DNA of 64,000 bases from an uncultured Bacteroides sp. GTDB taxonomy: Bacteria; Bacteroidota; Bacteroidia; Bacteroidales; SM23-62. Made by a program: the position numbers and the translations under genes. This document shows, one piece after another, positions 45,301-56,128 of this stretch (positions are counted from its first letter, which is position 1; every line of letters starts with the position of its first letter). The notes beneath the pieces were generated by a model, which ran no database searches, was not told where the DNA came from, and worked only from the letters and a program-made list of their open reading frames with translations. The stretch is from positions 5,467-69,466 of the forward strand of contig CAZNQG010000001.1 in NCBI GenBank assembly GCA_964575235.1, in the 5' to 3' direction.

Positions 45301-45431
45301 CTTTGGTTTAAATATGGTTTAAATATTTTTATGTTATTGTTTTATCCTTCAGTTTACTAATTTACCTTTCCAGTACTCCTGGGATCTATCATTACTTCAA
45401 TAAAGAATCACCTTAAACTTGACTACTGTAT

Positions 45432-45540
45432 ATTCCGGTGAGCATTGACCCACCATTCCGGCGACCTTTGACCCATCATTCCGGAGCATTGACCCCCCTG
45501 ATTTCAAGTTAGCCGATGTGTCATTCCGGCGCTTTGACCC
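45432..45540 (+). repeat. IS21-A left-end multiple terminal repeats (4 x (C)ATTCCGG-N4-6-TTGACCC)
   Basis: The four units lie at 45432-45451, 45454-45474, 45477-45495 and 45522-45540. Multiple subterminal repeats are a hallmark of IS21-family ends. Confidence 0.7.
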
Positions 45541-45605
45541 CCCGTTTCGTGGCAAAAGAAATAATGCTTTGATTTGATGTATTCGCAACATCAAATCACA
45601 AGAAA

Positions 45606-47096
45606 ATGGCTTATCACAAAGTTGAAATGGGAGAAAAGAAATTAGTAAAACGATTATCTGAAAGCGGAGTAAGTATCCACGAAATTGTTCGCCAGACTGG
45701 GCTCTCAAGGAATACAGTCCGAGGATACATCCGTGATGATGATCTGGACGAATCAACCGAAGAGCAATTGGATGACCGGTACAACCAGCTCTTAGAGTTG
45801 TTGCCTGACTATAAGTTAGAACTAGCACGCAAAGGCGTTACCCGTCAGTTATTATGGCTTGAATACAAGCAAAAACATCCCGATGGCTATGGTTACTCCC
45901 AGTTCTGTTATCACTTTCATGAATATCTTAAACGTGATGACGTCACGTTGCATATTGACCAAAAGCCTGGAGATAAGTTGTATGTTGATTTTACGGGTTG
46001 GAAATTAGAGATTGTTGACCGCAATACCGGAGAAATCATACCCCAGGAAGTATTTGTCAGCGTACTTGGCTACAGTTCATTTGGTTATCTCGAAGCCTGT
46101 AATAGCCAGAAGAAAGAAGACTTTCTTCATTGCATGGAGAATACTCTTCGATACATCGGCGGAGTACCTGCTGTCATCGTCCCGGATAATATGAAAGCAG
46201 CCGTCATCCAAGCGGATAATTATGAACCGGATTTGAACCGGAACCTACAGGAATTTGGGGAGCACCATGGCGTAGGGATCCTGCCAGCCAGAAGCCGTAA
46301 GCCGAGAGATAAGGCATGGGTTGAAAGGATGGTCGGGATCATCTACACCCACGTCTTTGCTCCTTTACGCGACCAGGTCTTCCATGATCAGTTTTCATTG
46401 AACCAGGCACTCTGGGACAAGCTGGAGGATCTCAACAACATGCCGCTGCAGAAACGACCGGAAAGTCGGCGTGAACTGCTGGAAAGGGATGAAAGGCCCC
46501 TTCTTAAGGATCTCACAGCTGAGCGGTACGTGGTCAAAGAATATGCTCAAGCGACAGTAATGAAAAACTCCCATGTTCATCTGTCCAGGGATAAACACTA
46601 TTACAGCGTTCCTTACAAATATGTCGGAAAGAAAATCAAGATAAGCTTTACCCGCGATCATGTCAGTGTGTTTTACAATCATCAACAGATTGCTTTTCAT
46701 CAGCGAGATCGCAGACCCTACAAATACACCACAGTTGCAGCTCACTTGCCTTCCACTCATCAGGTGATCCTGGACTGGAATCCGGAAAAGTTCATTAAAC
46801 AAGCATCCGAGATCTCCCAGGAAGTGGAACATTACATGCGGGAGATCCTGGAGAGGAAATATTATCCCGAACAAGCTTACCGAAGTTGTGCTGGCCTGTT
46901 GAACCTGGGAAGGAAGTACGGCCATCAGAGGCTGACAAATGCATGCCGGCGAGCAGCCACGTTCGGTAATTACGGTTACAAGACCATTGGCAATATCCTG
47001 AAAAACAACTATGACAATTTACCTGACTCAACGATACAGCAAAAGAAAAAGCTTCCCTTCCATGATAATATCCGGGGGGTTGGTAATTACAAATGA
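45606..47096 (+). CDS. istA: IS21 family transposase IstA
   Basis: 496 aa with an N-terminal HTH (SIHEIVRQTGLSRNTVRGYI) and an rve/DDE core (YVDFTG..., VIVPDNMKAAV, ...PRDKAWVER). Confidence 0.92.
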   Translation: MAYHKVEMGEKKLVKRLSESGVSIHEIVRQTGLSRNTVRGYIRDDDLDESTEEQLDDRYNQLLELLPDYKLELARKGVTRQLLWLEYKQKHPDGYGYSQFCYHFHEYLKRDDVTLHIDQKPGDKLYVDFTGWKLEIVDRNTGEIIPQEVFVSVLGYSSFGYLEACNSQKKEDFLHCMENTLRYIGGVPAVIVPDNMKAAVIQADNYEPDLNRNLQEFGEHHGVGILPARSRKPRDKAWVERMVGIIYTHVFAPLRDQVFHDQFSLNQALWDKLEDLNNMPLQKRPESRRELLERDERPLLKDLTAERYVVKEYAQATVMKNSHVHLSRDKHYYSVPYKYVGKKIKISFTRDHVSVFYNHQQIAFHQRDRRPYKYTTVAAHLPSTHQVILDWNPEKFIKQASEISQEVEHYMREILERKYYPEQAYRSCAGLLNLGRKYGHQRLTNACRRAATFGNYGYKTIGNILKNNYDNLPDSTIQQKKKLPFHDNIRGVGNYK

Positions 47097-47126
47097 TCTC
47101 AATAATAATCTATCAAAACCAAAAAT

Positions 47127-47801
47127 GTGATGAATGAAATTACACTGAACAAAATGAATGAGATGAAGTTCTACGGTATGCAGCGCACCTTTGAAATGTT
47201 GCTCACTACCAAGAACATTGATCAACTCGGAACGGATGAATTTATACATATGTTGATCCAGGCTGAATGGGAGGACCGCGAAAACAGAAAAGTTAATCGA
47301 TACATTAAGGCAGCCCGGTTCCGTCAAACAGCAACCGTAGAGCAGGTTGATTTTACCACCGCACGGCGATTGGACAAATCTTCTTTCCTTCGTTTTGCTG
47401 ACTGCAGCTTTATCCAAAAGGGTGAAAACATACTGATTACAGGGCCAACCGGTGTTGGTAAAAGCTATCTGGCTTCTGCACTTGGCCACCAGGCTTGCCT
47501 CAAAGGATACAAGGTCAAATACTATAACATGCAAAAATTGATCTCATGGCTGAAAATGTCACAGGCTGATGGAGCCTACTATCGAGAGATAGATAAAATC
47601 GAAAAATACAATCTGTTGATCCTTGATGACTTTGGTCTACAGCCCTTTGATGAGCAATCGAGAATTATACTCTTGGAGATTATTGAAGACCGTTACGATA
47701 AAAAATCCACCATTATAAGCTCTCAGATACCGGTTGCAAAATGGTACGAGCTAATCGGCGAAAATACGATTGCAGATTATCCTAACTTTTTTATTATGTG
47801 A
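47127..47801 (+). pseudogene. istB: IS21 helper ATPase IstB, 3'-truncated (last 7 codons and stop supplied by the RIT inverted repeat)
   Basis: Walker A (GPTGVGKSYLASALG) and Walker B (LLILDDFG) are present. The sequence ends ...GENTIAD|YPNFFIM*. It lacks the ~35-aa AI(L/I)DR(L/I)xHH...SYR tail seen in the istB fragment at 53693..54205. Confidence 0.8.
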
Positions 47802-47803
47802 AG
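47775..47803 (+). repeat. RIT left terminal inverted repeat
   Basis: GATTATCCTAACTTTTTTATTATGTGAAG. Its reverse complement occurs at 51278-51306 as GATTATCCTACCTTTTTTTATTATGTGAAG. Confidence 0.8.
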
Positions 47804-47929
47804 CTGTTTTTTGAAGGATCCTATTAATCAATTACTTATAAATATCCCTTCATCATTTTGTTAGCATAATAATTTCCTTTATATCCTGGGCATAAGCCCT
47901 GATTAAAGGTATCACTAAACAAAATTATT

Positions 47930-49181
47930 ATGCAAAACAATTTCGATTACGAAGAAATTACCTCCAAGGTTTACAATTATCTTAAGGAGGAATTTTCCTA
48001 CAAGTATGTTACCCTTCGTCATTACAGAAGTCGATGGCTTCCCGTTAAAAAGTATATGGAGAAGCATGGGCTAAAATTCATTAACCCGGCAGTGTGTAAA
48101 GGCTTTTTAATCGAGTTTTATAATGGTCGAACTCATGAAGAATTAACTGAAAAAGAAAAATACATCGAGAAATCCGTTTCAGTACTTTCCGAGTATATGG
48201 TGACTGGTTCTGTACAACGGAGATGTAAGGTCAGGTATTTGGACGGTTCTATTGGTCATTTGATGAAGGATTTTATTGCACATAAGCGATCTCATCGTTT
48301 AAGAGTAACAACTCTTGCTAAGATAGAAAGCCACTTGAGCACTTTTAATTTCTGGCTTTCTACGAATGGCATTTGCAGTATTAATGATATCAAACACCAT
48401 CACATTATCACCTTTATTAAAAGCCTTGATCCACATAAAAAAGCTCTCATCCATGATACTTTGATAGATTTACGCGGGTTTTTCAAATTTCTTTATGAGA
48501 AAGGAGTTATTCCTTCCAATTTATCAACCTTTATTCCTAAGGATAATTATCAGAAACAGAATAAATTACCCGCTTATTATACGGAAGCGGAAATTGAAAA
48601 GCTCCTGAAATCGATTGACAGAGGAAATATTGTAGGAAAAAGGGATTATGCTATTTTGGTACTTGCCGCTTATCTCGGTTTGAGGGCATCCGATATCGCC
48701 CGTCTTCGGTTCGAGAACTTACACTGGGATCAGAATACGATCATTCTCAGGCAATACAAGACTGGTAAAAATATAACCCTTCCTTTGTTGCCGGTGGTTG
48801 GGAATGCACTCCTTGATTATATCCAATACGGGAGGCCCAAATCAGATGAACAGTATATTTTTTTTACTTGTGATATCTCCATTCCTTTCCATTCGTGCAC
48901 ATACCATTACTGGTATGATAAACCGAAGATTTTCCTATGCTGGATTTAAATCAACTAACAGGAGATATGGGGGGCATGCCCTCCGCCATAGTCTTGTTAA
49001 GGAATTACTTAACAATAAGCAGTCCCTTCCTGTAATAAGCGAAGTCCTCGGCCATAAAAACACAACTTCGACCCGGCATTATATAAGGATAGATACTGAA
49101 TCCCTTGGTCAATGCGCTTTGGATGTCCCTCTTGTTGACCCAGCATTTTACAACCAGGAAGGAGGTCTATTACTGTCATGA
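47930..49181 (+). pseudogene. RIT tyrosine recombinase 1 (RitA-like), interrupted by a +1 frameshift in a T8 run
   Basis: ORFs 47930..48949 and 48798..49181 are two halves of one gene. Removing one T from the T8 run at 48858-48865 gives ...SDEQYIFLLVISPFLSIRAHTITGMINRR...GGHALRHSLV...LGHKNTTSTRHYIRID (R..HxxR..Y catalytic set), 416 aa in total. Confidence 0.8.
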
Positions 49182-50170
49182 ACAGTAAATCATTCTGGAG
49201 TGTATTCGCTCCACACATCAGAGACTTTATTAGTCTTAAAAGAAGCCTCGGCTATAAATACCAAGTAGAAGAAAGAATCCTATATACCTTTGATCGATTT
49301 ATACTGGATCAGGGTCATACCAATCCCGGATTAACCAAAGAGATATCTGATAAATGGGCTGATGGACGCCATAATGAAGCTGAGCTGACCATTTATGGTA
49401 AAATTAAGGTAGTAAAACAGTTGGCGGAACACTTACGTGATCAGGGCATCAAAACCTTTGTTCCTCAATTACCCAAATATCCAGGCAACACATTTATCTC
49501 TTACATCTATTCCCATGAAGAGATAAACGCTATGTTCCGGGCCTGCGACAGTCTGAGGATGAAATGCAGGAATGTTTATTCCTGTCTTTTAATCATGCCC
49601 TGCCTGTTACGGTTACTTTATGGGACAGGTATTCGTATCAATGAGGCTCTATCGTTAAAGAATAAGGATGTAAATATTAATGGGAGATTCCTGACTTTAA
49701 AGGATACCAAAAACGGAAAAGACAGGTTAATACCCATGTCAAGTTCGCTTACCGTCGTCTTCAAAGACTATCTGAAACAACGAAATAAGCTTCCTCTCAA
49801 TGGCTTGAAACGTGAAAATGGGCCATTCTTTGTTTCCTTGAATGGTGGAGAATGTACACAAGGTGCTGTACATCGCTGGTTCCGGAAGGTGCTTGTATTG
49901 GCGGGAATCCCTTTTACGGGTAACAGAAAAGGACCCAGGATCCATGATATCCGCCATACCTTCGCCTGTCATTCTTTTTTGAAGCTTTCCGATGAAGGTG
50001 TGGACCTGTATTGTTCATGGCCTTACCTTTCGACTTATCTCGGGCATCAGTCGCTGGAATCCACTGAGCAATATATAAGATTGACCACACAAATGTATCC
50101 AGAACTGCTGAAAGATACCGACGGACTGTATGTAGATGTTCTCCCGGATATTCCAGCCAAAACTAAATGA
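49178..50170 (+). CDS. RIT tyrosine recombinase 2 (RitB-like)
   Basis: 330 aa with GIRINEALSL (Arg I), HDIRHTFACH (HxxR) and LGHQSLESTEQYIRL (Tyr). ATGA overlap with the upstream gene. Confidence 0.85.
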   Translation: MNSKSFWSVFAPHIRDFISLKRSLGYKYQVEERILYTFDRFILDQGHTNPGLTKEISDKWADGRHNEAELTIYGKIKVVKQLAEHLRDQGIKTFVPQLPKYPGNTFISYIYSHEEINAMFRACDSLRMKCRNVYSCLLIMPCLLRLLYGTGIRINEALSLKNKDVNINGRFLTLKDTKNGKDRLIPMSSSLTVVFKDYLKQRNKLPLNGLKRENGPFFVSLNGGECTQGAVHRWFRKVLVLAGIPFTGNRKGPRIHDIRHTFACHSFLKLSDEGVDLYCSWPYLSTYLGHQSLESTEQYIRLTTQMYPELLKDTDGLYVDVLPDIPAKTK

Positions 50171-51201
50171 CTGCCATGAAGCAAGTAAACGATTTTACCC
50201 GGTTACTGTCTGGCTTTCTGAACAACTATCTGCCTCATGAAAAGGGAGTTAGTGCAAATACGATAAAGTCATACAGTTATACGTTCATCCTCTTTATCAA
50301 ATTTATGCGTGAGAACAGGAACGTACCTGCTACAAAGTTATCATTCACTCATCTTAAAAAGGATTTGGTTGTTGGATTCCTTGATTGGCTCCAGAACGAT
50401 AGGGGCTGTGGTGAGGCTACTCGCAATCAACGATTAGCAGCTCTATCTTCATTTATAAAATATGCCGAATATATGAATCCTGGTCATTTATTTGACTGCC
50501 ATGAAATATTATCCATCCCTGCCAAAAAAACAGAAAGCAAAACACGTAATTATTTGAGTATTGACGGCATGAAACTGCTGTTGCAACAACCCAATACTCA
50601 ACAAACCAAAGGGCTCCGGGACCTTGCTCTGTTATCCTTAATGTACGAGAGTGCCGCTAGGGTCCAGGAAATTATTGATCTGACTCCTGCTTCCCTGTTC
50701 ATCGCTAACAAACCCTATAGGGTTATCCTGCATGGGAAGGGTAACAAATACAGGTCAATACCTCTTCCAGACAAGCAGGCAGAACTGCTAAGATTATATA
50801 TATCCCAGAATGGTCTTTTAAACAGGGAAAATGCGCAAAAATCCTTGTTCCCAAATTACCAGGGGCAGAAGATGACACGTAATGGTATTAATAATGTCCT
50901 GGTTAAATATTTAAAGATGGCTAACAAAAAAAATCCCTCTTTGGTACCTGATCATCTGAGTTGTCATTCCATAAGACATACCAAGGCTATGCACTTATTG
51001 GAATCTAAGGTTGAATTGATACATATAAGAGACTTCCTGGGTCATAAATCAGTATTGACTACCGAAACCTATGCTCGTATGAATCCTAAGTTTACTTTTG
51101 AAGCGGTGAAGAACGCGTATAAAAACATAACTGTTGATAATATACCAGCCTGGAAGGGTAATAATGAATTAATGGTAATGCTGAAAAACCTTGCTAAATG
51201 A
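50167..51201 (+). CDS. RIT tyrosine recombinase 3 (RitC-like)
   Basis: 344 aa with an N-terminal SAM-like core-binding domain, ARVQEIIDL (Arg I), HSIRHTKAMHLL and LGHKSVLTTETYARM. ATGA overlap with the upstream gene. Confidence 0.85.
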   Translation: MTAMKQVNDFTRLLSGFLNNYLPHEKGVSANTIKSYSYTFILFIKFMRENRNVPATKLSFTHLKKDLVVGFLDWLQNDRGCGEATRNQRLAALSSFIKYAEYMNPGHLFDCHEILSIPAKKTESKTRNYLSIDGMKLLLQQPNTQQTKGLRDLALLSLMYESAARVQEIIDLTPASLFIANKPYRVILHGKGNKYRSIPLPDKQAELLRLYISQNGLLNRENAQKSLFPNYQGQKMTRNGINNVLVKYLKMANKKNPSLVPDHLSCHSIRHTKAMHLLESKVELIHIRDFLGHKSVLTTETYARMNPKFTFEAVKNAYKNITVDNIPAWKGNNELMVMLKNLAK

Positions 51202-51277
51202 GGTAGAATATTATGCAAAGAGATTAATTGAATATGGACAGATAAGTAGATGGTTCACAGAACATACCGTTATAATA

Positions 51278-51306
51278 CTTCACATAATAAAAAAGGTAGG
51301 ATAATC
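51278..51306 (-). repeat. RIT right terminal inverted repeat
   Basis: CTTCACATAATAAAAAAAGGTAGGATAATC on the + strand, which is the reverse complement of the left IR. Confidence 0.8.
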
Positions 51307-51954
51307 GGCAACAGTTTTGTCGGAGATTATATCGTACCATTGCTCAACTGGGAACTGTGAGGTGATGATCGTTGACTTCTGATCATGCCTGTCCTCGATT
51401 ATTTCAAGGAATGAAAGCCTGCCCGGGCTGTCCAGTGATTGCAGGCCAAAGTCGTCGATAATCAGCAGATCCACTTTCGCCATCCTGGTTATTTCCTTCA
51501 GATAAGAACCATCCGCTTTCAGCATCTTCAGCTTTGACAGAAGCTTGGCCATGTTCTCATACAGCACCTTAAATTCTTTAATACAGGCCTGGTGACCAAG
51601 GGCCGAAGCTACAAAACTTTTACCCACACCGGTAGCACCGGTTATGATGATGTTTTCATTTCGACGGATAAAATCGCAGCTGGCAAAACGAAGGATCTGA
51701 TTCCTGTCCAGGTTTCGTTTATCATCGTAGGTCAGATCTTCAATACAGGCTTTATACCTGAACCTGGACATGCGAACCAGTCTTTCGATTTTCCTTGTGT
51801 GCCTTTCATCCATCTCGGCATCGAGCAGGTAGTTGATCATTTCATCCTGTGTGTAGTTCTGATTCCTGCCAGCCTCCAAGGTGGTCTCAAAGGCTCTGCA
51901 CATGCCAAAGAAGTTAAGATGCTTCATCTTTTCCAGTAAAACTTCACTTTCCAT
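51280..51954 (-). pseudogene. istB: IS21 helper ATPase IstB (element B), 3'-truncated at the same codon as IstB-A
   Basis: Contains GATGVGKSFVASALG and LLIIDDFG. The sequence ends ...SDKTVAD|YPTFFIM*, with the last 7 codons and the stop lying inside the RIT right IR. Confidence 0.8.
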
Positions 51955-51983
51955 AATTGTTGTTTGATTTGTTAGTATTTGGA

Positions 51984-53526
51984 TTATTTATAGTACTTGT
52001 TGCCCCTGATGTTCTTGTGACTTGGTAATGGATCCTGGGACTCATCGTCATCGATGAACTTATCCATGTTATTTTCCAGTATGTTCTTGATGATTGTGTA
52101 ATTGTGGGTTCCGTATTCAAGGGCTCTGCGACAGGCATTTTCCACCCTCATGCTCCCGACTTTGGTAACAAGCTGCAATACCCCCGAACACGAACGATAC
52201 GCTTTTGCCGGGTATTTGCTTTCTTCGAGGATTTGGGTGATAAACTGACTTGTGTAGACACCCACCTTTTCGGCATCTGCCAGTAAGTTCTCGGGGTTCA
52301 GATCAAGATAATGTTTCTGATTCTGGGTCAGATGTTCCGGGACAGTGGTATATGCATGCGGGGCTCTGTCCCTGTCATGAGAGGCTATCAGATCATAGTT
52401 GCTGTATATCTCAACGGTTGACTGAGTGTAAACAATTTTAACCTTGCTGCCGATGTAGTAATGCGGTACGCTGTAATAATGTTTATCCCTGGGCATGTAG
52501 ACATGACAATGCCGGTATACCGTTCCGACAGCGTACTCCTTCATCTGATAATAGCATGCCGGCAACGGTTTCAACAGGTTCTTTTCCATCTGTTCAAACA
52601 GATCCCACCGGCTGTATCTCTTGTTGGTCAAAGGCATTTTGTTGTGTTTATCCAGCTCCCGGAGGATCGCCAGGTTCAACTGTTCAAGGCTGTGGAAGGT
52701 CTGGGACTGCAGCGGAACGTATACTCGATGGTACAATATCTTGATTACTCCTTCTACCAGGGATTTGTCGCGGGGCTTACGGATCCGGGCGGGAAAAACA
52801 ATGGTATCATAATGATCGGCAAAATCGGCAAAAGCTTCATTGAGCTGAGGCTCGTATGGATTGGTTTTAGTAACGGCCGATTTAAGATTATCCGGGACGA
52901 TACTTTTGGGTACACCGTTATAGAAGTAAAGTGCGTTCTCAACGCATGAGATAAAGTCCTCCTTCTTCTGGCTCATCGCTGCCTCCATGTAAGTATATTG
53001 GCTGGCGCCCATGATTGCTACAAATACTTCCACGGCTGTCCTGTCGCCGGTTTTCTTATCAACGACATGAAGCTTCTTGCCTGCAAAATCCACGAACATG
53101 CTATCTCCGGCCTTATGGTTCATACGCATCGTCGGTGAACTGCTTTTCTTCCATTTATTGTAGTAATGGCAAAACTGTGTTCTCTGATAGCCTCCCGGAT
53201 TTCCTCTGATGTAGCGTTCCCATAGCTTTCCTTTGGTCATCCCTGGTTTCTTCAAATCCCGGTCATAAATCGGGAACAACTCCAATAATTGATTCAGCTT
53301 TGGGGGATTTTCATTGGTTCTCGATTCAAACATCTTCCAGCTGCTTATCACTCAGTCGCATGATCTCATCATAATCCAGACCACAGACACTGAAGTAATC
53401 CAGGTACTTGGTGACCGTGTTGCGGGAGACACCCAGCAGCGTACTGATAAACCTTTTACTCTTGCCAGAGTTGTGTAAACGCAAAATCCTTCTTGTTTCC
53501 ATAATTTCAAGTTTTTTGTTGGACAT
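51984..53526 (-). pseudogene. istA: IS21 family transposase IstA (element B), split by a frameshift between HTH and catalytic parts
   Basis: ORF 53326..53526 encodes the HTH part (ISTLLGVSRNTVTKYL ... LSDKQLEDV*). ORF 51984..53351 encodes the remainder (FESRTNENPPKLNQLLELFP..., DDE core). The two frames overlap at 53326-53351. Confidence 0.8.
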
Positions 53527-53619
53527 GATTTAGAGAATTGGTACATATATCTATACCATAAGCTCCAAATCGTTGCCTGGAAAACAGTAATAATTATTAA
53601 CTTGAATGACGGCTTGGCG

Positions 53620-53712
53620 GGTGGTTCAATTTGAACCGGAGAAGGTGGCTCAGTTTGCCCCGGACAGCTATGCTCAGTTACGAGCGGATTGAATGGCTCA
53701 GTTTATCCGAAA
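53620..53712. repeat. IS21-B end repeats (4 units of ~GGTGGCTCAGTTTnnCCGGA, ~24-nt period)
   Basis: The units are GGTGGTTCAATTTGAACCGGA (53620-), GGTGGCTCAGTTTGCCCCGGA (53644-), TATGCTCAGTTACGAGCGGA (53669-) and AATGGCTCAGTTTATCCGAAA (53692-). Confidence 0.6.
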
Positions 53713-53718
53713 TTTCCA

Positions 53719-54296
53719 CCTGGCAGCATGCCGATTTATCCCGGAAAAACAAAATGTCGTCTTTATGGGCAAGCCCGGTGTGGGCAAAACACACCTCGCG
53801 AATGCTTTGGGCTTGGAAGCAATCAAGAAAGGGTACAAAGTAATATTTACTCATGCCAATAGCCTGATCGATCAGCTTCACAGATCTAAAGCAGATGGAA
53901 AATACCAGAACGTTCTATCAAAGATTAGCCGAATCGATCTGTTGATCATCGATGAGCTGGGCTTCCGTAAAATCCCACAGAATGGAATGGATGACTTTTT
54001 TGAAATCATCCGCAGTAGATACGAAACCGGATCCATCATAATTACGACTAACCGAAACTTTGAAGACTGGGGATCATTGCTGGGTGATATGGTAATGGCA
54101 TCTGCAATTATCGATCGGATAGTTCATCATGCAGAAATCATTAAAATCATTGGAAATAGCTATAGAATAAGGAATTACGAGGAAAGATTAACTGATAACA
54201 ATTAAACTAATAGACAGACATAACAGATTTAATTCTATTTTTAAAGTGGCTCAATTTTATTGAGAAAAACTGGCTCAGAATTATTGATAGGTAACA
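53719..54296 (+). mobile_element. Right-hand remnant of a third IS21-family element (C): istB 3' portion plus right terminal repeats ending ...GGTAACA
   Basis: An istB fragment is followed by two TGGCTCA-type repeats (54245-54265 and 54269-54296). The terminus ends in CA at 54296. Confidence 0.65.
53720..54205 (+). pseudogene. istB: IstB fragment (Walker A to native C-terminus) of IS21-C
   Basis: Reads ...FIPEKQNVVFMGKPGVGKTHLANALG...LLIIDELGF...GDMVMASAIIDRIVHHAEIIKIIGNSYRIRNYEE. The N-terminal ~80 aa are missing. The ATG at 53693 in the ORF track lies inside the IS21-B end repeat. Confidence 0.75.
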
Positions 54297-54455: not shown

Positions 54456-56128
54456 GGGACCTTCGTAAAATAGACTTGATTTCTAAAAATCCGGCTGGGT
54501 GATGGTTGAACTGGCCGGATTTTTTAGTTGCAAGCCATCGATTTTACGTTTTCCTCTTAATATGTGCATGATTTTGAAGTTCTTGTAGACACCTCTTCCA
54601 TCCAACCATCATTTGATCGGTCATCTTTAGCCCTATGCTGCTAAGTGAGGTAGTTTTTCTTGTGCCAGACGTTTTGAGATCCTGACAGCATTGGCTGTAT
54701 GGACGCCAAAGAAAATCCAGAGGATTTCATTCTTCTCGATCCTGGCTTTGATCTTGTCAAGGCTATAGTGTTGTTTCTCAGTACCAAAACTACCCTCCAT
54801 GCGAGTAACTCTTTCCTTACGCAACTCAGCTGCCAGGATAAGTCGCTGGTCTTCATATTTCCCTGCTCGACCTTTGCGTTTGAAGTCGGTAGCAATATCG
54901 CGCCCAGTGCACCATTTCCGGTTGGCATTGTTGGCATAGATGTCATCGGCAGCTATATGCGTAATCTTCCCAAACAAGGACCGGCTGTACCAAATGGAGT
55001 CAATCAGCCTGGGGCCTTCGTTGAAGGCATCAAAGCTTAGGTGCTCAATGAAGTTGATTCCATCCACCTGGATCATATTTACTTTGGCTCCGAACTCTAC
55101 TTTCTTTACCTCTTTGCCACGGACAATAGGTCGAACATAACTCTTTGCGATAGAGACGATCCTGTCCGGAATAGAGTGGGAGCCTGTGGTGAACATCTCC
55201 TTCTGTTGCCTGAGTACCTTGAGGATCACCCTGCGTCGCTGATAATACTTTTCAGGGAACTGAAGGTAGGCGCGGTGTCTGTCTTCGATCTTCTTCTGTT
55301 CATCGATCAGTTTCTCCAGGAGGTAAAGTAAACTTCGGGTCCGTTTGGTAGTCTGCTTCCAGGGCTTCTTACGCATACGCATATAGGAAAAATACTTGTC
55401 TTTCTGATCCAGGTACTTGGTCCTGGGTGTGGGGATCTTCAGATACTTGCAGGTTCGCTTCATTTGCCCATGCATCCAGTCAACACACTCCCACAGAAGC
55501 TTAACGTTGGTCGGGAAGCGGATGTAACTCTCGTAGCAGGTGGCGTCCTCCAATATAATGTTTGTTTGCTCCAGGTATGGCTTCCAGGATTTGGCCAATA
55601 CAGACTGGACTTCCCGGATATTCAACTTCCTGGCAAGCTCTGTCCGGATCCGGCTGATCACCTTAAAATCTATCAGTTTATCCGTGCCCAGGAAGATTCC
55701 GCAGAATATCTGCCACTGGATGTTCCCGTTGAGTTGTTCATAAAGCAGTCGATCCGACATGCCACTATAGGACTTCAGGAACATCAAGGCCAATTTACCC
55801 CGAGGACTGAACAATGACTTGCGACCTGAACGGTTCTCCTTTAATTTCAAGGATTTGATCAGTTGATCCCAGGGGATGGACTGATAGACTTTGCCAAGTT
55901 CTGATTCCAGAAAGCGGTTCCAGTATAGTGAAAATTCCTGCTGTGGGGAAATAAATGAAATCTCTTGGGTAGATTCGAAAATTCGGTGTAAATTGTTCAT
56001 GTAATTTGAAGATTTACCCCGATTTCTTGCCTGCAGAGCTGATTTCGGGGTTTTTCTTTAAATTACAAAAAATATAACTCTTTAACAATCAAAGTTTTAA
56101 ACAGGTTTTCGACATTCGCGAAGGTCCC
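54456..56128 (-). mobile_element. IS4/IS5-superfamily insertion sequence (IS5/IS1182-like)
   Basis: The terminal IRs GGGACCTTCG(T/C)(A/G)AA lie at 54456-54469 and, as reverse complement, at 56115-56128. They enclose a single transposase gene. The flanks are A-runs, so a target-site duplication cannot be resolved. Confidence 0.7.
54633..56000 (-). CDS. DDE transposase (DUF772 N-terminal domain + DDE_Tnp_1-type catalytic domain)
   Basis: 455 aa with SLFSPRGKLALMFLKSYSGMSDRLLYEQL (InsH-N/DUF772-like), EDATCYES, RGKEVKKVEFGAKV, AADDIYANNANR and ERVTRMEGSFGTEKQHY. The exact family assignment is uncertain. Confidence 0.85.
   Translation of the reverse strand: MNNLHRIFESTQEISFISPQQEFSLYWNRFLESELGKVYQSIPWDQLIKSLKLKENRSGRKSLFSPRGKLALMFLKSYSGMSDRLLYEQLNGNIQWQIFCGIFLGTDKLIDFKVISRIRTELARKLNIREVQSVLAKSWKPYLEQTNIILEDATCYESYIRFPTNVKLLWECVDWMHGQMKRTCKYLKIPTPRTKYLDQKDKYFSYMRMRKKPWKQTTKRTRSLLYLLEKLIDEQKKIEDRHRAYLQFPEKYYQRRRVILKVLRQQKEMFTTGSHSIPDRIVSIAKSYVRPIVRGKEVKKVEFGAKVNMIQVDGINFIEHLSFDAFNEGPRLIDSIWYSRSLFGKITHIAADDIYANNANRKWCTGRDIATDFKRKGRAGKYEDQRLILAAELRKERVTRMEGSFGTEKQHYSLDKIKARIEKNEILWIFFGVHTANAVRISKRLAQEKLPHLAA

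Follow-up and report, generated by a model that had tools for sequence, protein, structure and literature searches.

A recombinase-in-trio element between two truncated istB genes, and the istB codon pair occupied by its relatives

The locus: two incomplete IS21 elements around a recombinase trio

The window (the whole stretch of 64,000 nt that was analysed) holds two insertion sequences of the IS21 family facing each other across a segment with three recombinase genes (Table 1). Both flanks meet the criteria for IS21, with the DDE transposase gene istA ahead of the AAA+ helper gene istB and with multiple terminal repeats, and both are incomplete. The two istB ORFs (47127-47801 on the forward strand and 51280-51954 on the reverse) run towards each other and encode 224 residues each. 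Their identity is 52% at the protein level and 58% at the DNA level, which bears out the original prediction that the proteins are about half identical and come from different IS21 members. Each covers the Pfam profile IstB_IS21 only from position 2/3 to 210 of 238. The third IstB fragment (53693-54205) reaches position 235 and keeps a C-terminus beginning AIIDR, so it does continue past the break, as had been claimed. It is 37% identical to IstB-A, has its 5′ side interrupted where IS21-B ends, and is a third, unrelated IstB.

Table 1 Features of the locus (positions in the window)
Feature	Position	Strand	Basis or remark
IS21-A, without right side	45427-47777	+	DNA homology to intact IS21 in L083/L084; Pfam
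IS21-A left terminal repeats	start ~45427		terminal repeats seen
istA-A	45606-47096	+	Pfam Mu-transpos_C_2/rve
istB-A 5′ part	47127/47130-47777	+	Pfam IstB_IS21 3-210/238
Left spacer/crossover region TGCAGAT	47771-47777	+	codons A-D of IstB-A
RIT left inverted repeat TATCCTAACTTTTTTATTATGTGAAG	47778-47803	+	encodes YPNFFIM* tail of IstB-A
ritA	47930-49181	+	+1 nt frameshift in T8 run ~48858; ORFs 47930-48949, 48798-49181
ritB, 330 aa	49178-50170	+	Phage_integrase; ATGA overlap with ritA
ritC, 344 aa	50167-51201	+	Phage_int_SAM_1/4/5 + Phage_integrase; ATGA overlap with ritB
RIT right inverted repeat	51278-51303	-	one mismatch to left; encodes YPTFFIM* tail of IstB-B
Right spacer ATCGGCA (reverse complement TGCCGAT)	51304-51310	-	codons A-D of IstB-B
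IS21-B	51304-53715	-	cut at same istB position as IS21-A
istB-B 5′ part	51304-51954	-	
istA-B	51984-53526	-	two overlapping ORFs
IS21-B outer end	~53640-53715 (approximate)	-	ACTGAGCCA-type terminal repeats
Third IstB, 3′ part	53717-54205 (ORF 53693-54205)	+	Pfam IstB_IS21 82-235/238; alignment

In a multiple alignment with intact homologues, IstB-A and IstB-B depart from homology at one column, after ...T-I/V-A-D, the same residue that had been singled out by eye. Beyond it both continue in a common 7-codon tail which, with its stop codon, is encoded by the inverted repeats of the central element, again as predicted. The break in istB-A can be placed to the nucleotide: an intact IS21 (L083/L084) is 93.8% identical in DNA to 45427-47777 and the match ends exactly at 47777, so that the break lies between 47777 and 47778. 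The empty site in L084 reads ...ACGATCGCAGAT up to the insertion point and GCGATCATGGATCGG after it. An intact IstB of 242 residues (P0122), 99% identical to IstB-A, follows ...TIAD with AIMDRIVNGANRIDLDGPTMRGNRKK, that is, AIMDR..., and the number of C-terminal residues missing is therefore 26 rather than the ~35 first estimated. The motif AD-A(I/V/L)(L/M)DR is intact in 119 of the 120 closest IstB homologues (239-256 residues long), and the IstB of PDB 8q3w aligns across the break with ...LAT followed by AMLDR. Measured against the intact relative, IS21-A lacks 26 istB codons and the IS21 right end. Both copies share with the IS21 family (IS5376 IstB structures 5bq5, 8q3w and 8q4d) the istA-istB order, the AAA+ domain of IstB and multiple terminal repeats, and differ from it in having lost the right IS end together with the final 26 codons of IstB, the sensor-II region, so that neither copy can transpose alone.

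A natural IstB ending in ...ADYPxFFIM, that is, a short isoform, would account for the same tails and has the two window ORFs as its only support. We give it practically no credence and reject it: 119/120 closest homologues carry the AILDR motif and are of full length, the Pfam match stops at 210 of 238, and the tail is repeat sequence of the inserted element, changing as the repeat changes (YPHFFIMR, YPNVFIMR, YHHFLIMR and others).

Judged from its genes and its ends, the segment 47778-51303 (3,526 bp) is a recombinase-in-trio (RIT) element of a Bacteroidota lineage. It has the defining features of RITs, namely three adjacent, co-oriented tyrosine recombinase genes whose start/stop overlaps fall within 4-8 bp (here 4 bp), and ~3.5 kb between terminal inverted repeats of ~28-34 bp. 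The predicted ATGA overlaps are found at 49178 and 50167, and all three genes match Phage_integrase (PF00589). The catalytic R...HxxR...Y residues are kept in the translations of RitA (LGLRASD, HALRHS, RHYIRI), RitB (GIRINE, HDIRHT, EQYIRL) and RitC (SAARVQE, HSIRHT, ETYARM). The proteins, of ~417, 330 and 344 residues, match the published range of 315-410 in size. Their assignment to the RitA, RitB and RitC subfamilies, in that order, is provisional, since it rests on size and on the similarity of RitB and not on subfamily-specific traits (two core-binding (CB) domains in RitA, an extra C-terminal helix in RitC). RitB has more than 2,000 homologues. Its matches include 729 plasmid records, mostly from Alpha- and Betaproteobacteria, at 25-31% identity over ~90% of the length; on a Cupriavidus plasmid the match is the middle gene of a trio, after a 410-residue RitA-like gene.

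Two features escaped the original account of the trio, the palindrome described below and a frameshift in ritA. The Phage_int_SAM_1 and Phage_integrase matches of ritA are spread over two ORFs by a single 1-nt gap relative to L004, a T-run insertion at ~48858, and the independent Logan contig L081 has it too; in 14 other loci ritA is intact, with 417-431 codons. Being split in this way, the gene probably yields no full-length RitA from the window copy. The terminal repeats, given earlier as ~29 bp, do match at 28 of 29 positions (47775-47803 and 51278-51306), but they comprise 26 nt of element and three shared flank bases (GAT) that are target or spacer. The similarity of the DNA just outside them, also pointed out earlier, is genuine and is explained by the conserved I/V-A-D codons together with the recombination spacer TGCNGAT. 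The inner 13-mer of the repeat occurs at these two sites only in the whole 64 kb. Each repeat is built of two direct repeats that resemble recombinase-binding sequences, binding being inferred from this likeness.

One istB codon pair as the target of the clade

The clade to which this RIT belongs was surveyed in 22 genome loci plus the window; the comparison as a whole took in about 100 related loci. All 41 evaluable junctions of the clade lie at the same istB site. There the codons for ...I/V-A-D are separated from those for A-I-L/M-D-R, immediately ahead of the AAA+ ATPase's sensor-II arginine, so that insertion destroys IstB. The sequence (T)GCNGAT adjoins the inverted repeat at every junction. 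The IstBs at the flanks form a diverse set, with 44-67% identity to IstB-A, and the RITs are 60-90% identical; in L040 RitB is only 48% identical, yet the istB site is the same. Both orientations of insertion are seen (L004 versus L009; L018-L022), the empty site is present in an intact IS21 of 94% DNA identity, and no RIT of the clade without istB flanks was found among the 22 genome loci and the window. Thus, the proposal that the element inserts site-specifically into istB, upstream of the AILDR codons and in either orientation, is strongly supported, and a count of RIT flanks gives no copy in unrelated surroundings within the clade. As far as the available sequences go, istB of IS21-family insertion sequences is the only integration site observed for this lineage. 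With about 100 related copies showing insertion at one conserved istB codon pair, the RIT family appears to parasitise another mobile element and to join its copies together. Other RIT lineages sit at other conserved motifs, in IstB Walker A, IS66 transposase, RadC, YhcG and IstA.

The roles might be reversed, the IS21 elements or a composite of them being the invaders, with an IS21 inserted beside a resident RIT or the istB fragments serving as the RIT's long inverted repeats. A repeat search does stretch the inverted repeat to 133 nt at 74%. This extension, however, is istB coding homology only: the istB pair is 58% identical over its whole length, with peaks of 0.73-0.75 at the Walker A region (47427-47516) and much the same level in the final ~80 nt leading up to the inverted repeat. 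Intact IS21 without a RIT exists whereas the clade's RITs are always flanked by istB, the flanking IstBs vary over 44-67% identity and the RITs over 60-90%, and both IS21 copies in the window lack right ends. These observations contradict an IS21 invasion, which we consider very improbable.

Palindrome P, rearranged forms and a possible mechanism

In an ordinary insertion the order is istB 5′ part, inverted repeat, ritABC, inverted repeat, a 20-nt palindrome (P) and the istB 3′ part (its last 26-30 codons). P consists of two inverted copies of the inner repeat of the inverted repeat (TTATGCGAA nn TTCGCATAA), and its arms equal that inner repeat in every clade. Eleven simple insertions of the clade studied here have it, the flanks on the P side all read AD-AILDR...stop, and the Cupriavidus plasmid RIT has the same layout, P included. 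An 'overlapping palindromic sequence' of RITs was mentioned, uninterpreted, by Van Houdt 2012 (PMC3414803). A spacer of 6-7 nt, (T)GCNGA(T), is found in three places: beside the bare inverted repeat, where the other inverted repeat meets P, and on the far side of P, ahead of the istB 3′ part. No P-like palindrome was found anywhere in the window, and its absence marks the window copy as a rearranged product.

The spacers carry further information. At L079 GTGCGG is present three times. At L072 the bare-junction and P-distal spacers are both CTGCGG, the native target sequence, and the P-proximal spacer is a foreign TCTTGG; this fits a spacer brought from the previous site, a behaviour known from Tn554 and SEs (PMC10214605). 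The three copies of the spacer often disagree at its variable base, so that an overlap at this position must tolerate mismatch or the model below is incomplete. P itself is found in both orientations relative to the RIT and to the target (L018-L022), and the model therefore needs an extra in-situ inversion step.

L002, L008 and L015 show the arrangement of the window, a RIT without P between two istB 5′ halves. L006, L014 and L016 have the mirror form, in which P and an istB 3′ half lie at either end of the RIT, and an equivalent two-3′-half form in the Walker-A clade (L067) lies inside a 377-kb contig of an isolate genome. Scars consisting of P alone, without a RIT, were predicted and have been found ten times, once inside a 358-kb contig (L087). 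All ten have IstB C-termini on either side, reading away from P, and rit, istA and istB 5′ sequences are absent from their vicinity. Rearranged forms make up 7/18 two-ended loci, a high share, and some of the cases from short-read MAGs could be assembler paths through an orientation polymorphism; in L030, L032, L037 and L061 the flanks are identical on the two sides.

The window itself could be such an assembly chimera, two ordinary insertions having been joined by an assembler that came into the repeat out of IS21-A and went on into IS21-B. RITs are multicopy in many metagenomes, where many contigs are exactly of element size (3.43-3.54 kb), and the other two-5′-half loci come from short-read MAGs. 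Each single junction is not an assembly artefact, since each lies inside an independent k=31 Logan contig unbroken at the inverted repeat ends: L082 extends 975 nt into the RIT and L081 (48728-53657) begins in ritA and continues past the right junction, and each agrees with the window at 100% identity. The two contigs meet inside ritA with an overlap of only 25 nt, and the linkage of the two junctions consequently rests on the deposited assembly. An overlap shorter than k-1 looks like a coverage dropout, however, and not a graph branch; a second RIT copy with other flanks would have broken the k=31 contigs at the inverted repeat ends, no P-type junction exists in the window, and solo-P scars and P/P forms occur in nature, including in the long contigs of L087 and L067. 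A chimera is thus unlikely.

The original prediction went further and derived the facing 5′ halves from recombination between two RIT copies, one in each IS21, with deletion of everything between them. The kind of product is upheld by the recurrent two-5′-half and mirror forms; the two-copy deletion is not the sole route, as the ten solo-P scars fit one RIT and an empty second istB. In the two-copy route, complete RITs in IS21-A and IS21-B, opposite in orientation relative to istB, exchange between their 3.5-kb lengths, by homologous or recombinase-mediated means, and the intervening DNA is deleted or inverted, leaving 5′ half, RIT and 5′ half. Both insertion orientations do occur within single genomes (L004/L009; L018-L022), and the expected reciprocal exists as the mirror form, with L067 as its Walker-A equivalent. 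The route does not itself yield RIT-less solo-P scars, although secondary excision from a P/P copy could, and the sample's k=31 contigs contain no second RIT copy, though the event would have consumed one. We keep this route as a possibility of the weaker kind; it cannot be distinguished from a single-copy route from the window alone.

For the single-copy route we propose a double-site mechanism, for which, taken alone and on comparison of sequences only, we judge the chances to be about even. In a tyrosine-recombinase reaction the spacer would serve as the 6-nt overlap for strand exchange. The mobile form would carry IRR-spacer-P-spacer-IRL, a large palindrome with two equivalent core sites, each of binding repeat, 6-nt overlap and binding repeat. 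Either core site could recombine with the partly palindromic target ATYGC-NGAT-GCNAT, which would explain both insertion orientations. After integration one intact core site (inverted repeat, spacer, P) would remain, able to capture a second, empty istB elsewhere. Such a capture would leave a P-less RIT between the facing 5′ halves of two different IS21s, exactly as in the window, with a RIT-less scar of P flanked by two istB 3′ ends as its partner product, and the DNA between the two original IS21 copies would be inverted or deleted. No circular or tandem IRR-spacer-P-spacer-IRL junction was found in JGI metagenome contigs or among the ~3.5-3.6-kb contigs of close relatives, and the mobile form thus remains hypothetical. 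Having half-sites only and a frameshifted ritA, the window copy is probably a trapped, decaying product; a dead end is not demonstrated for the two-5′-half form in general, as ritABC is intact in L002, L008 and L015. Taken together, the identity and target specificity of the RIT and the view that the window holds a product of rearrangement are, in our judgement, likely to be right.

Relation to other elements and what the site implies

The element agrees with published RITs (Van Houdt et al. 2009/2012, PMC3414803) in its three adjacent tyrosine recombinase genes, provisionally in the order ritA-ritB-ritC, 4-bp overlaps, ~3.5-kb length, ~29-bp terminal inverted repeats and occurrence in several copies within genomes; a palindrome beside one end, noted in PMC3414803, was seen here in the relatives and in the Cupriavidus plasmid RIT. 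It differs in that a whole lineage is tied to one istB codon pair and sister lineages to other motifs, in the reading of the repeat, spacer and P layout as a double recombination site, and in the window copy's missing P and broken ritA. Single, anecdotal cases of insertion had been reported before, one into a Tn6049-like transposase gene and one into the radC of an ICE (PMC3414803). The published descriptions of RITs give no target specificity or mechanism, and the searchable literature no RIT-istB relationship (Ricker et al. 2013 lay outside the scope of both statements), so the suggestion that this relationship was undescribed holds within that limit.

Tn554, SEs and GInts are, like RITs, elements with several tyrosine recombinases and high target-site specificity. 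The Tn554 site, att554, lies within radC, and one RIT lineage found here is likewise in RadC genes. Tn554 differs in having two recombinases and TnpC, no terminal inverted repeats and resistance cargo, and SEs and GInts in a fourth conserved protein and in the cargo that they carry; RITs have no cargo, symmetrical inverted repeats and the palindrome, and the gene targeted by the istB-RITs belongs to another transposable element and is not chromosomal. A Tn554-like transposon was rejected for the window element on its three recombinases, clear inverted repeats and lack of a TnpC-like ORF and of cargo; the resemblance is limited to site specificity and to spacer carry-over, a 6-bp core being taken from the previous site into the new one in Tn554/SE-type elements (PMC10214605). 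Homing elements (group I/II introns, inteins, Tn7-like elements, R1/R2 in rDNA) compare in their highly conserved, multicopy, horizontally spreading landing site, which is safe and never lacking, and in lineage-specific retargeting to different motifs. Their chemistry is entirely different from that of tyrosine recombinases, and the RIT is not spliced out, so istB is killed.

We lean slightly towards extending this picture to RITs as a whole, as homing, site-specific elements whose lineages would be specialised on short conserved coding motifs, mostly in mobile-element genes (IstB sensor-II, IstB Walker A, IstA, IS66 transposase, RadC of ICEs, PD-(D/E)XK 'transposases'). Their movement would proceed by way of a double-att junction of palindromic form (IR-spacer-P-spacer-IR), in which the overlap is 6 nt. 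One att staying live would make them recombinase-driven linkers that invert, delete or fuse the DNA between host-IS copies, with P-less trapped copies and solo-P joints as the scars.

RITs have been known since 2009, yet their target specificity and movement are still listed as not tested in a 2023 review table (PMC10214605). The present analysis adds a concrete attachment site at nucleotide resolution and a testable site architecture of two-repeat inverted repeats, a 6-nt overlap and a palindrome giving a second core site; the several kinds of half-site in it are a possible reason for more than one recombinase. In annotation, an unusual short C-terminal tail on an IstB or transposase ORF becomes a means of recognising a RIT-interrupted gene. 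The ecological role suggested is that of a hyperparasite residing in, and inactivating, the IS21 helper gene, with sister lineages in IS66, istA and radC. RITs are thereby predicted to be a hitherto unrecognised source of genome rearrangement between IS copies; with the diagnostic scars as a guide, any Bacteroidota genome can be screened for it.

The trio element and its break point in istB

The original prediction placed a trio of recombinase genes between two half-identical istB ORFs with tails encoded by inverted repeats (IRs), and this layout is confirmed by the ORFs, the Pfam matches and the repeat match. The two IRs agree at 28 of 29 positions and encode the final seven codons and the stop of both istB ORFs, each of which matches positions 2/3–210 of 238 in the Pfam IstB profile; the inner 13-mer of the IR has no further occurrence in the 64 kb. 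Identity between IstB-A and IstB-B is 52% at the protein level and 58% at the DNA level, so they derive from different IS21 members. A long IR extending into istB was rejected as an alternative reading. The frameshift in ritA, one additional T in a run of eight, is common to the deposited contig and an independent Logan contig; the gene is unbroken, at 417–431 codons, in 14 related loci.

Features of the recombinase-in-trio (RIT) element and its surroundings (window positions)
Feature	Position	Strand	Basis or remark
istA of IS21-A	45606-47096	+	ORF listing, IS21-type
istB-A ORF, 224 aa	47127-47801	+	ORF listing; Pfam
IR, left copy	47775-47803
ritA	47930-49181	+	tyrosine-recombinase gene, overlapping trio
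additional T in ritA	~48858 (T8 run, 48850-48866)
ritB	49178-50170	+	tyrosine-recombinase gene, ATGA overlap
ritC	50167-51201	+	tyrosine-recombinase gene, ATGA overlap
IR, right copy	51278-51306
istB-B ORF, 224 aa	51280-51954	-	ORF listing; Pfam
istA of IS21-B	51984-53526	-	ORF listing
its 455-aa ORF	51984-53351	-
its 66-aa HTH ORF	53326-53526	-
outer end of IS21-B with the adjoining 3' two-thirds of the third IstB	53640-54205
listed ORF of third IstB	53693-54205		Pfam positions 82-235 of 238
IS4-like transposase	54633-56000
IS21-A 3' end, version other than the window strain's			GCGATCATGGATCGGATCGTTAATGG...
istB target site, 40 bp			ATYGCNGATGCNATY

The istA of IS21-B consists of two ORFs overlapping by 26 nt. 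The split resembles a frameshift, and IS21-B seems degenerate beyond the RIT insertion, a judgement made without comparison with intact homologues. Its outer end (ACTGAGCCA-type repeats) adjoins the remains of a third, unrelated IstB, after which comes the IS4-like transposase. This junction is one IS21 inside the istB of another, and the initial codons of the ORF listed for the third IstB are really IS21-B terminal sequence.

The closest database IstB (P0122; 99% identical, 242 aa) continues intact as ...TIAD^AIMDRIVNGANRIDLDGPTMRGNRKK, where ^ marks the break in the window. The contigs that encode it, L083 and L084, match the window at 93.8% identity from the left end of the IS21 (45427) up to exactly 47777, and read ...ACGATCGCAGAT^GCGATCATGGATCGG across the break. 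Homology to the intact IS21 stops at this point. The window copy thus lacks 26 codons, rather than the ~35 residues predicted, together with the right end of the IS. The sequence AD^A(I/V/L)(L/M)DR is intact in 119 of the 120 closest IstB homologues, and the break corresponds to ...LAT^AMLDR in the solved IS5376 IstB (8q3w), in the sensor-II segment of AAA+ proteins. IstB-B departs from homology at the same alignment column as IstB-A.

The head-to-head structure might have been produced by an assembly chimera. Run SRR14802572, assembled independently at k = 31 (Logan), has two contigs that reproduce window 45481–48752 (L082) and 48728–53657 (L081) at 100% identity, and both are unbroken at the IR ends, where a second copy in the sample with other flanks would have broken them. 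The two contigs meet inside ritA, so that linkage of the two IR junctions is only partly confirmed, but their overlap of 25 nt is below k − 1 and thus looks like coverage dropout, not a graph branch. Linkage on one molecule is likely, if not independently proven, and we consider a chimera very improbable.

Site specificity and the palindrome beside the element

A profile search for RitB homologues, which number about 2,000, led to 80 loci fetched from species-representative genomes, nearly all Bacteroidota. The clade of the window copy is taken as those with a RitB at least 60% identical to its own, and 22 loci of this clade have at least one flank. In these loci and the window, all 41 evaluable junctions fall at the identical istB position. 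The flanking IstBs are diverse (44–67% identical to IstB-A), which indicates many independent insertions, and two insertion orientations coexist in single genomes (L004/L009; L018–L022). Thus, the prediction of site-specific insertion into istB, in either orientation, is supported. The same site is used in L040, a locus with a RitB only 48% identical. The RIT itself is a known kind of element; no relationship of RITs with istB or IS21 was found in the searchable literature, with the main caveat that Ricker et al. 2013 lay outside its coverage. Target specificity and movement of RITs are given as 'not tested' in one account (PMC10214605).

The junctions are of two types. In type 1 the istB 5' part lies directly on the IR (...ACN ATT GCN GAT^TATCC), and in type 2 a 20-nt palindrome, P, separates the IR from the remainder of istB. 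P is the inner repeat of the IR twice, inverted (TTATGCGAA nn TTCGCATAA), and is bordered by inverted copies of the spacer (sp), (T)GCNGA(T). Beyond it, GCN GAT GCA ATC CTT GA... encodes AD-AILDR...stop, that is, the missing 26–30 residues. An ordinary insertion, found at 11 two-ended loci, reads istB5'-sp-IR-ritABC-IR-sp-P-sp-istB3'. Since intact IS21 has no P, it is brought in by the RIT. Simple target-site duplication was rejected, as the three GCNGAT copies are often unlike at N and one is inverted. A fixed orientation of P relative to ritABC was also discarded, being true for L004/L009 and broken in L018–L022; by inspection the left flank of L022 is an ordinary istB 5' flank and not a palindrome. 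Among three contigs with the same RIT from related samples (L097–L099; ERZ247946xx / ERR13319637), one istB 5' flank adjoins the left end of the RIT in one of them and its right end in a second; the third has a P-type flank at the right end. The two orientations coexist in this one community, which is what in-situ inversion or two-way insertion into identical IS21 copies would give.

The IR/spacer/P layout is kept in all other RIT clades examined, and a canonical proteobacterial RIT, on a Cupriavidus plasmid, has a 29-bp IR with GCGTCATGCGTATGTTGGCATGACGC on a single flank. On this plasmid (L096, 2553–2611 and 5995–6023; Cupriavidus oxalaticus) the one-sided palindrome lies beside an IR composed of two repeats, and its centre, TCATGCGTATGTTGGCATGA, is similar to the Bacteroidota P, TTATGCGAATGTTCGCATAA; ritC has no annotation there and the ORFs suggest disruption. 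An 'overlapping palindromic sequence' of RITs was mentioned, without interpretation, by Van Houdt 2012 (PMC3414803).

Proposed recombination and the origin of the head-to-head form

The outer repeat of the IR, the 6-nt spacer and an arm of P would together make a core site with inverted repeats, as is usual for tyrosine recombinases; in intact IS21, the sequence at the insertion point, ATYGC-NGAT-GCNAT, is itself partly palindromic. The mobile form is proposed to carry IRR-sp-P-sp-IRL, and hence two equivalent core sites, with a predicted junction of GGATA-ATCNGC-N-P-N-GCNGAT-TATCC. Either site could recombine with istB, (T)GCNGA(T) serving as the overlap, to give the two orientations, and one complete core site (IR-sp-P) would remain after integration. 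The P-adjacent spacer might be brought along from an earlier site. This fits L072, a locus of a more distant lineage, since its P-proximal spacer, TCTTGG, differs from the native CTGCGG of both the bare-junction and P-distal spacers, a pattern resembling the 6-bp carry-over of Tn554 and SEs (PMC10214605). Because P orientation varies in L018–L022, the model also needs in-situ inversion between the bare junction and the remaining core site. The occurrence of P in both orientations is a weak point of the double-site model, as is the spacer N, often unlike among the three copies. A circular or tandem IRR-spacer-P-spacer-IRL junction gave 0 matches in JGI metagenome contigs, and no circular overlap or junction was found among 3.5–3.6-kb contigs of close RitB relatives, so the proposed mobile form has no direct observational support. 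Intact copies of the element are present in, for instance, a Prolixibacteraceae genome (OY759981/OY759982).

The RIT of the window has a type 1 junction at either end, and no P was found in the whole 64 kb with up to 3 mismatches tolerated. Three further loci (L002, L008, L015) share this head-to-head form, the two IstB 5' halves being unlike each other in every case, and the mirror form, P and an istB 3' half on either side, is seen in L006, L014 and L016. Recombination between two RIT copies, as originally predicted, would be an exchange between copies inserted in opposite orientation relative to istB, and the mirror loci are its expected reciprocal product. Alternatively, the remaining core site of one integrated RIT could recombine with a second, empty istB, for which the reciprocal product would be a RIT-less scar, istB-3'(rc)-sp-P-sp-istB-3'. 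A targeted search of JGI metagenome contigs found ten such scars (L085–L094), one of them in a 358-kb contig. All have outward-reading IstB C-termini on both sides, unlike each other in nine, with no rit, istA or istB-5' sequence nearby. In the remaining scar, L091, the two sides are identical and may be an assembly fold-back. However, scars could also arise by excision from copies with P at both ends, which keeps the two routes from being told apart cleanly. By whichever route, the window structure is a rearrangement product linking two IS21 copies, the DNA between them inverted or deleted; to that extent the prediction holds, but its two-copy route cannot be distinguished, on the window alone, from single-copy capture. 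With half-sites only and a broken ritA, the copy is probably trapped; this is inferred, and in L002, L008 and L015, which likewise have two 5' halves, the genes are intact.

Targets of other RIT lineages

Targets were surveyed in the same 80 loci.

Other RIT targets
Target	Position in target	Loci
IstB Walker A	G-x-x-G-x-G^K-S, codon 110	at least 12
IS66 transposase	Pfam DDE_Tnp_IS66 ~256/284, near ...RPxAxG^RKN(Y/W)LF	~13
RadC JAB domain	profile position 71-80	9 (L041, L048, L052, L056-L058, L064, L076, L077)
YhcG nuclease		2 (L051, L055)
AbiEii toxin		1 (L071)
PD-(D/E)XK_2 'transposase'		1 (L080)
ORF6N		1 (L034)
IS21 IstA		1 (L073, Neobacillus, a Firmicute)

The Walker A lineage (L059, L060, L062, L065, L066, L067, L070, L072, L074, L075, L078, L079) has a RitB 42–47% identical and an unchanged IR/spacer/palindrome layout. 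Its carriers include cultured Sphingobacterium or Chryseobacterium. Two RITs adjoin in L059, and two istB 3' halves are present in L067, a 377-kb contig from an isolate of Sphingobacterium. The IS66 lineage includes L027, L030–L032, L035–L037, L042, L044–L046 and L049. Near-identical P and IS66-3' flanks of up to 292 nt lie on both sides in L030, L032 and L037; this reflects either a genuine palindrome or an assembly path that crosses an orientation polymorphism.

Tn554 sits in radC of staphylococci, and the RadC-targeting RITs likewise lie in RadC genes. Van Houdt 2012 (PMC3414803) reported individual RITs at two such places, a Tn6049-like transposase gene and the radC of an ICE. From the sequence comparisons, insertion at conserved motifs, mostly those of other mobile elements, looks like a trait of RITs in general.
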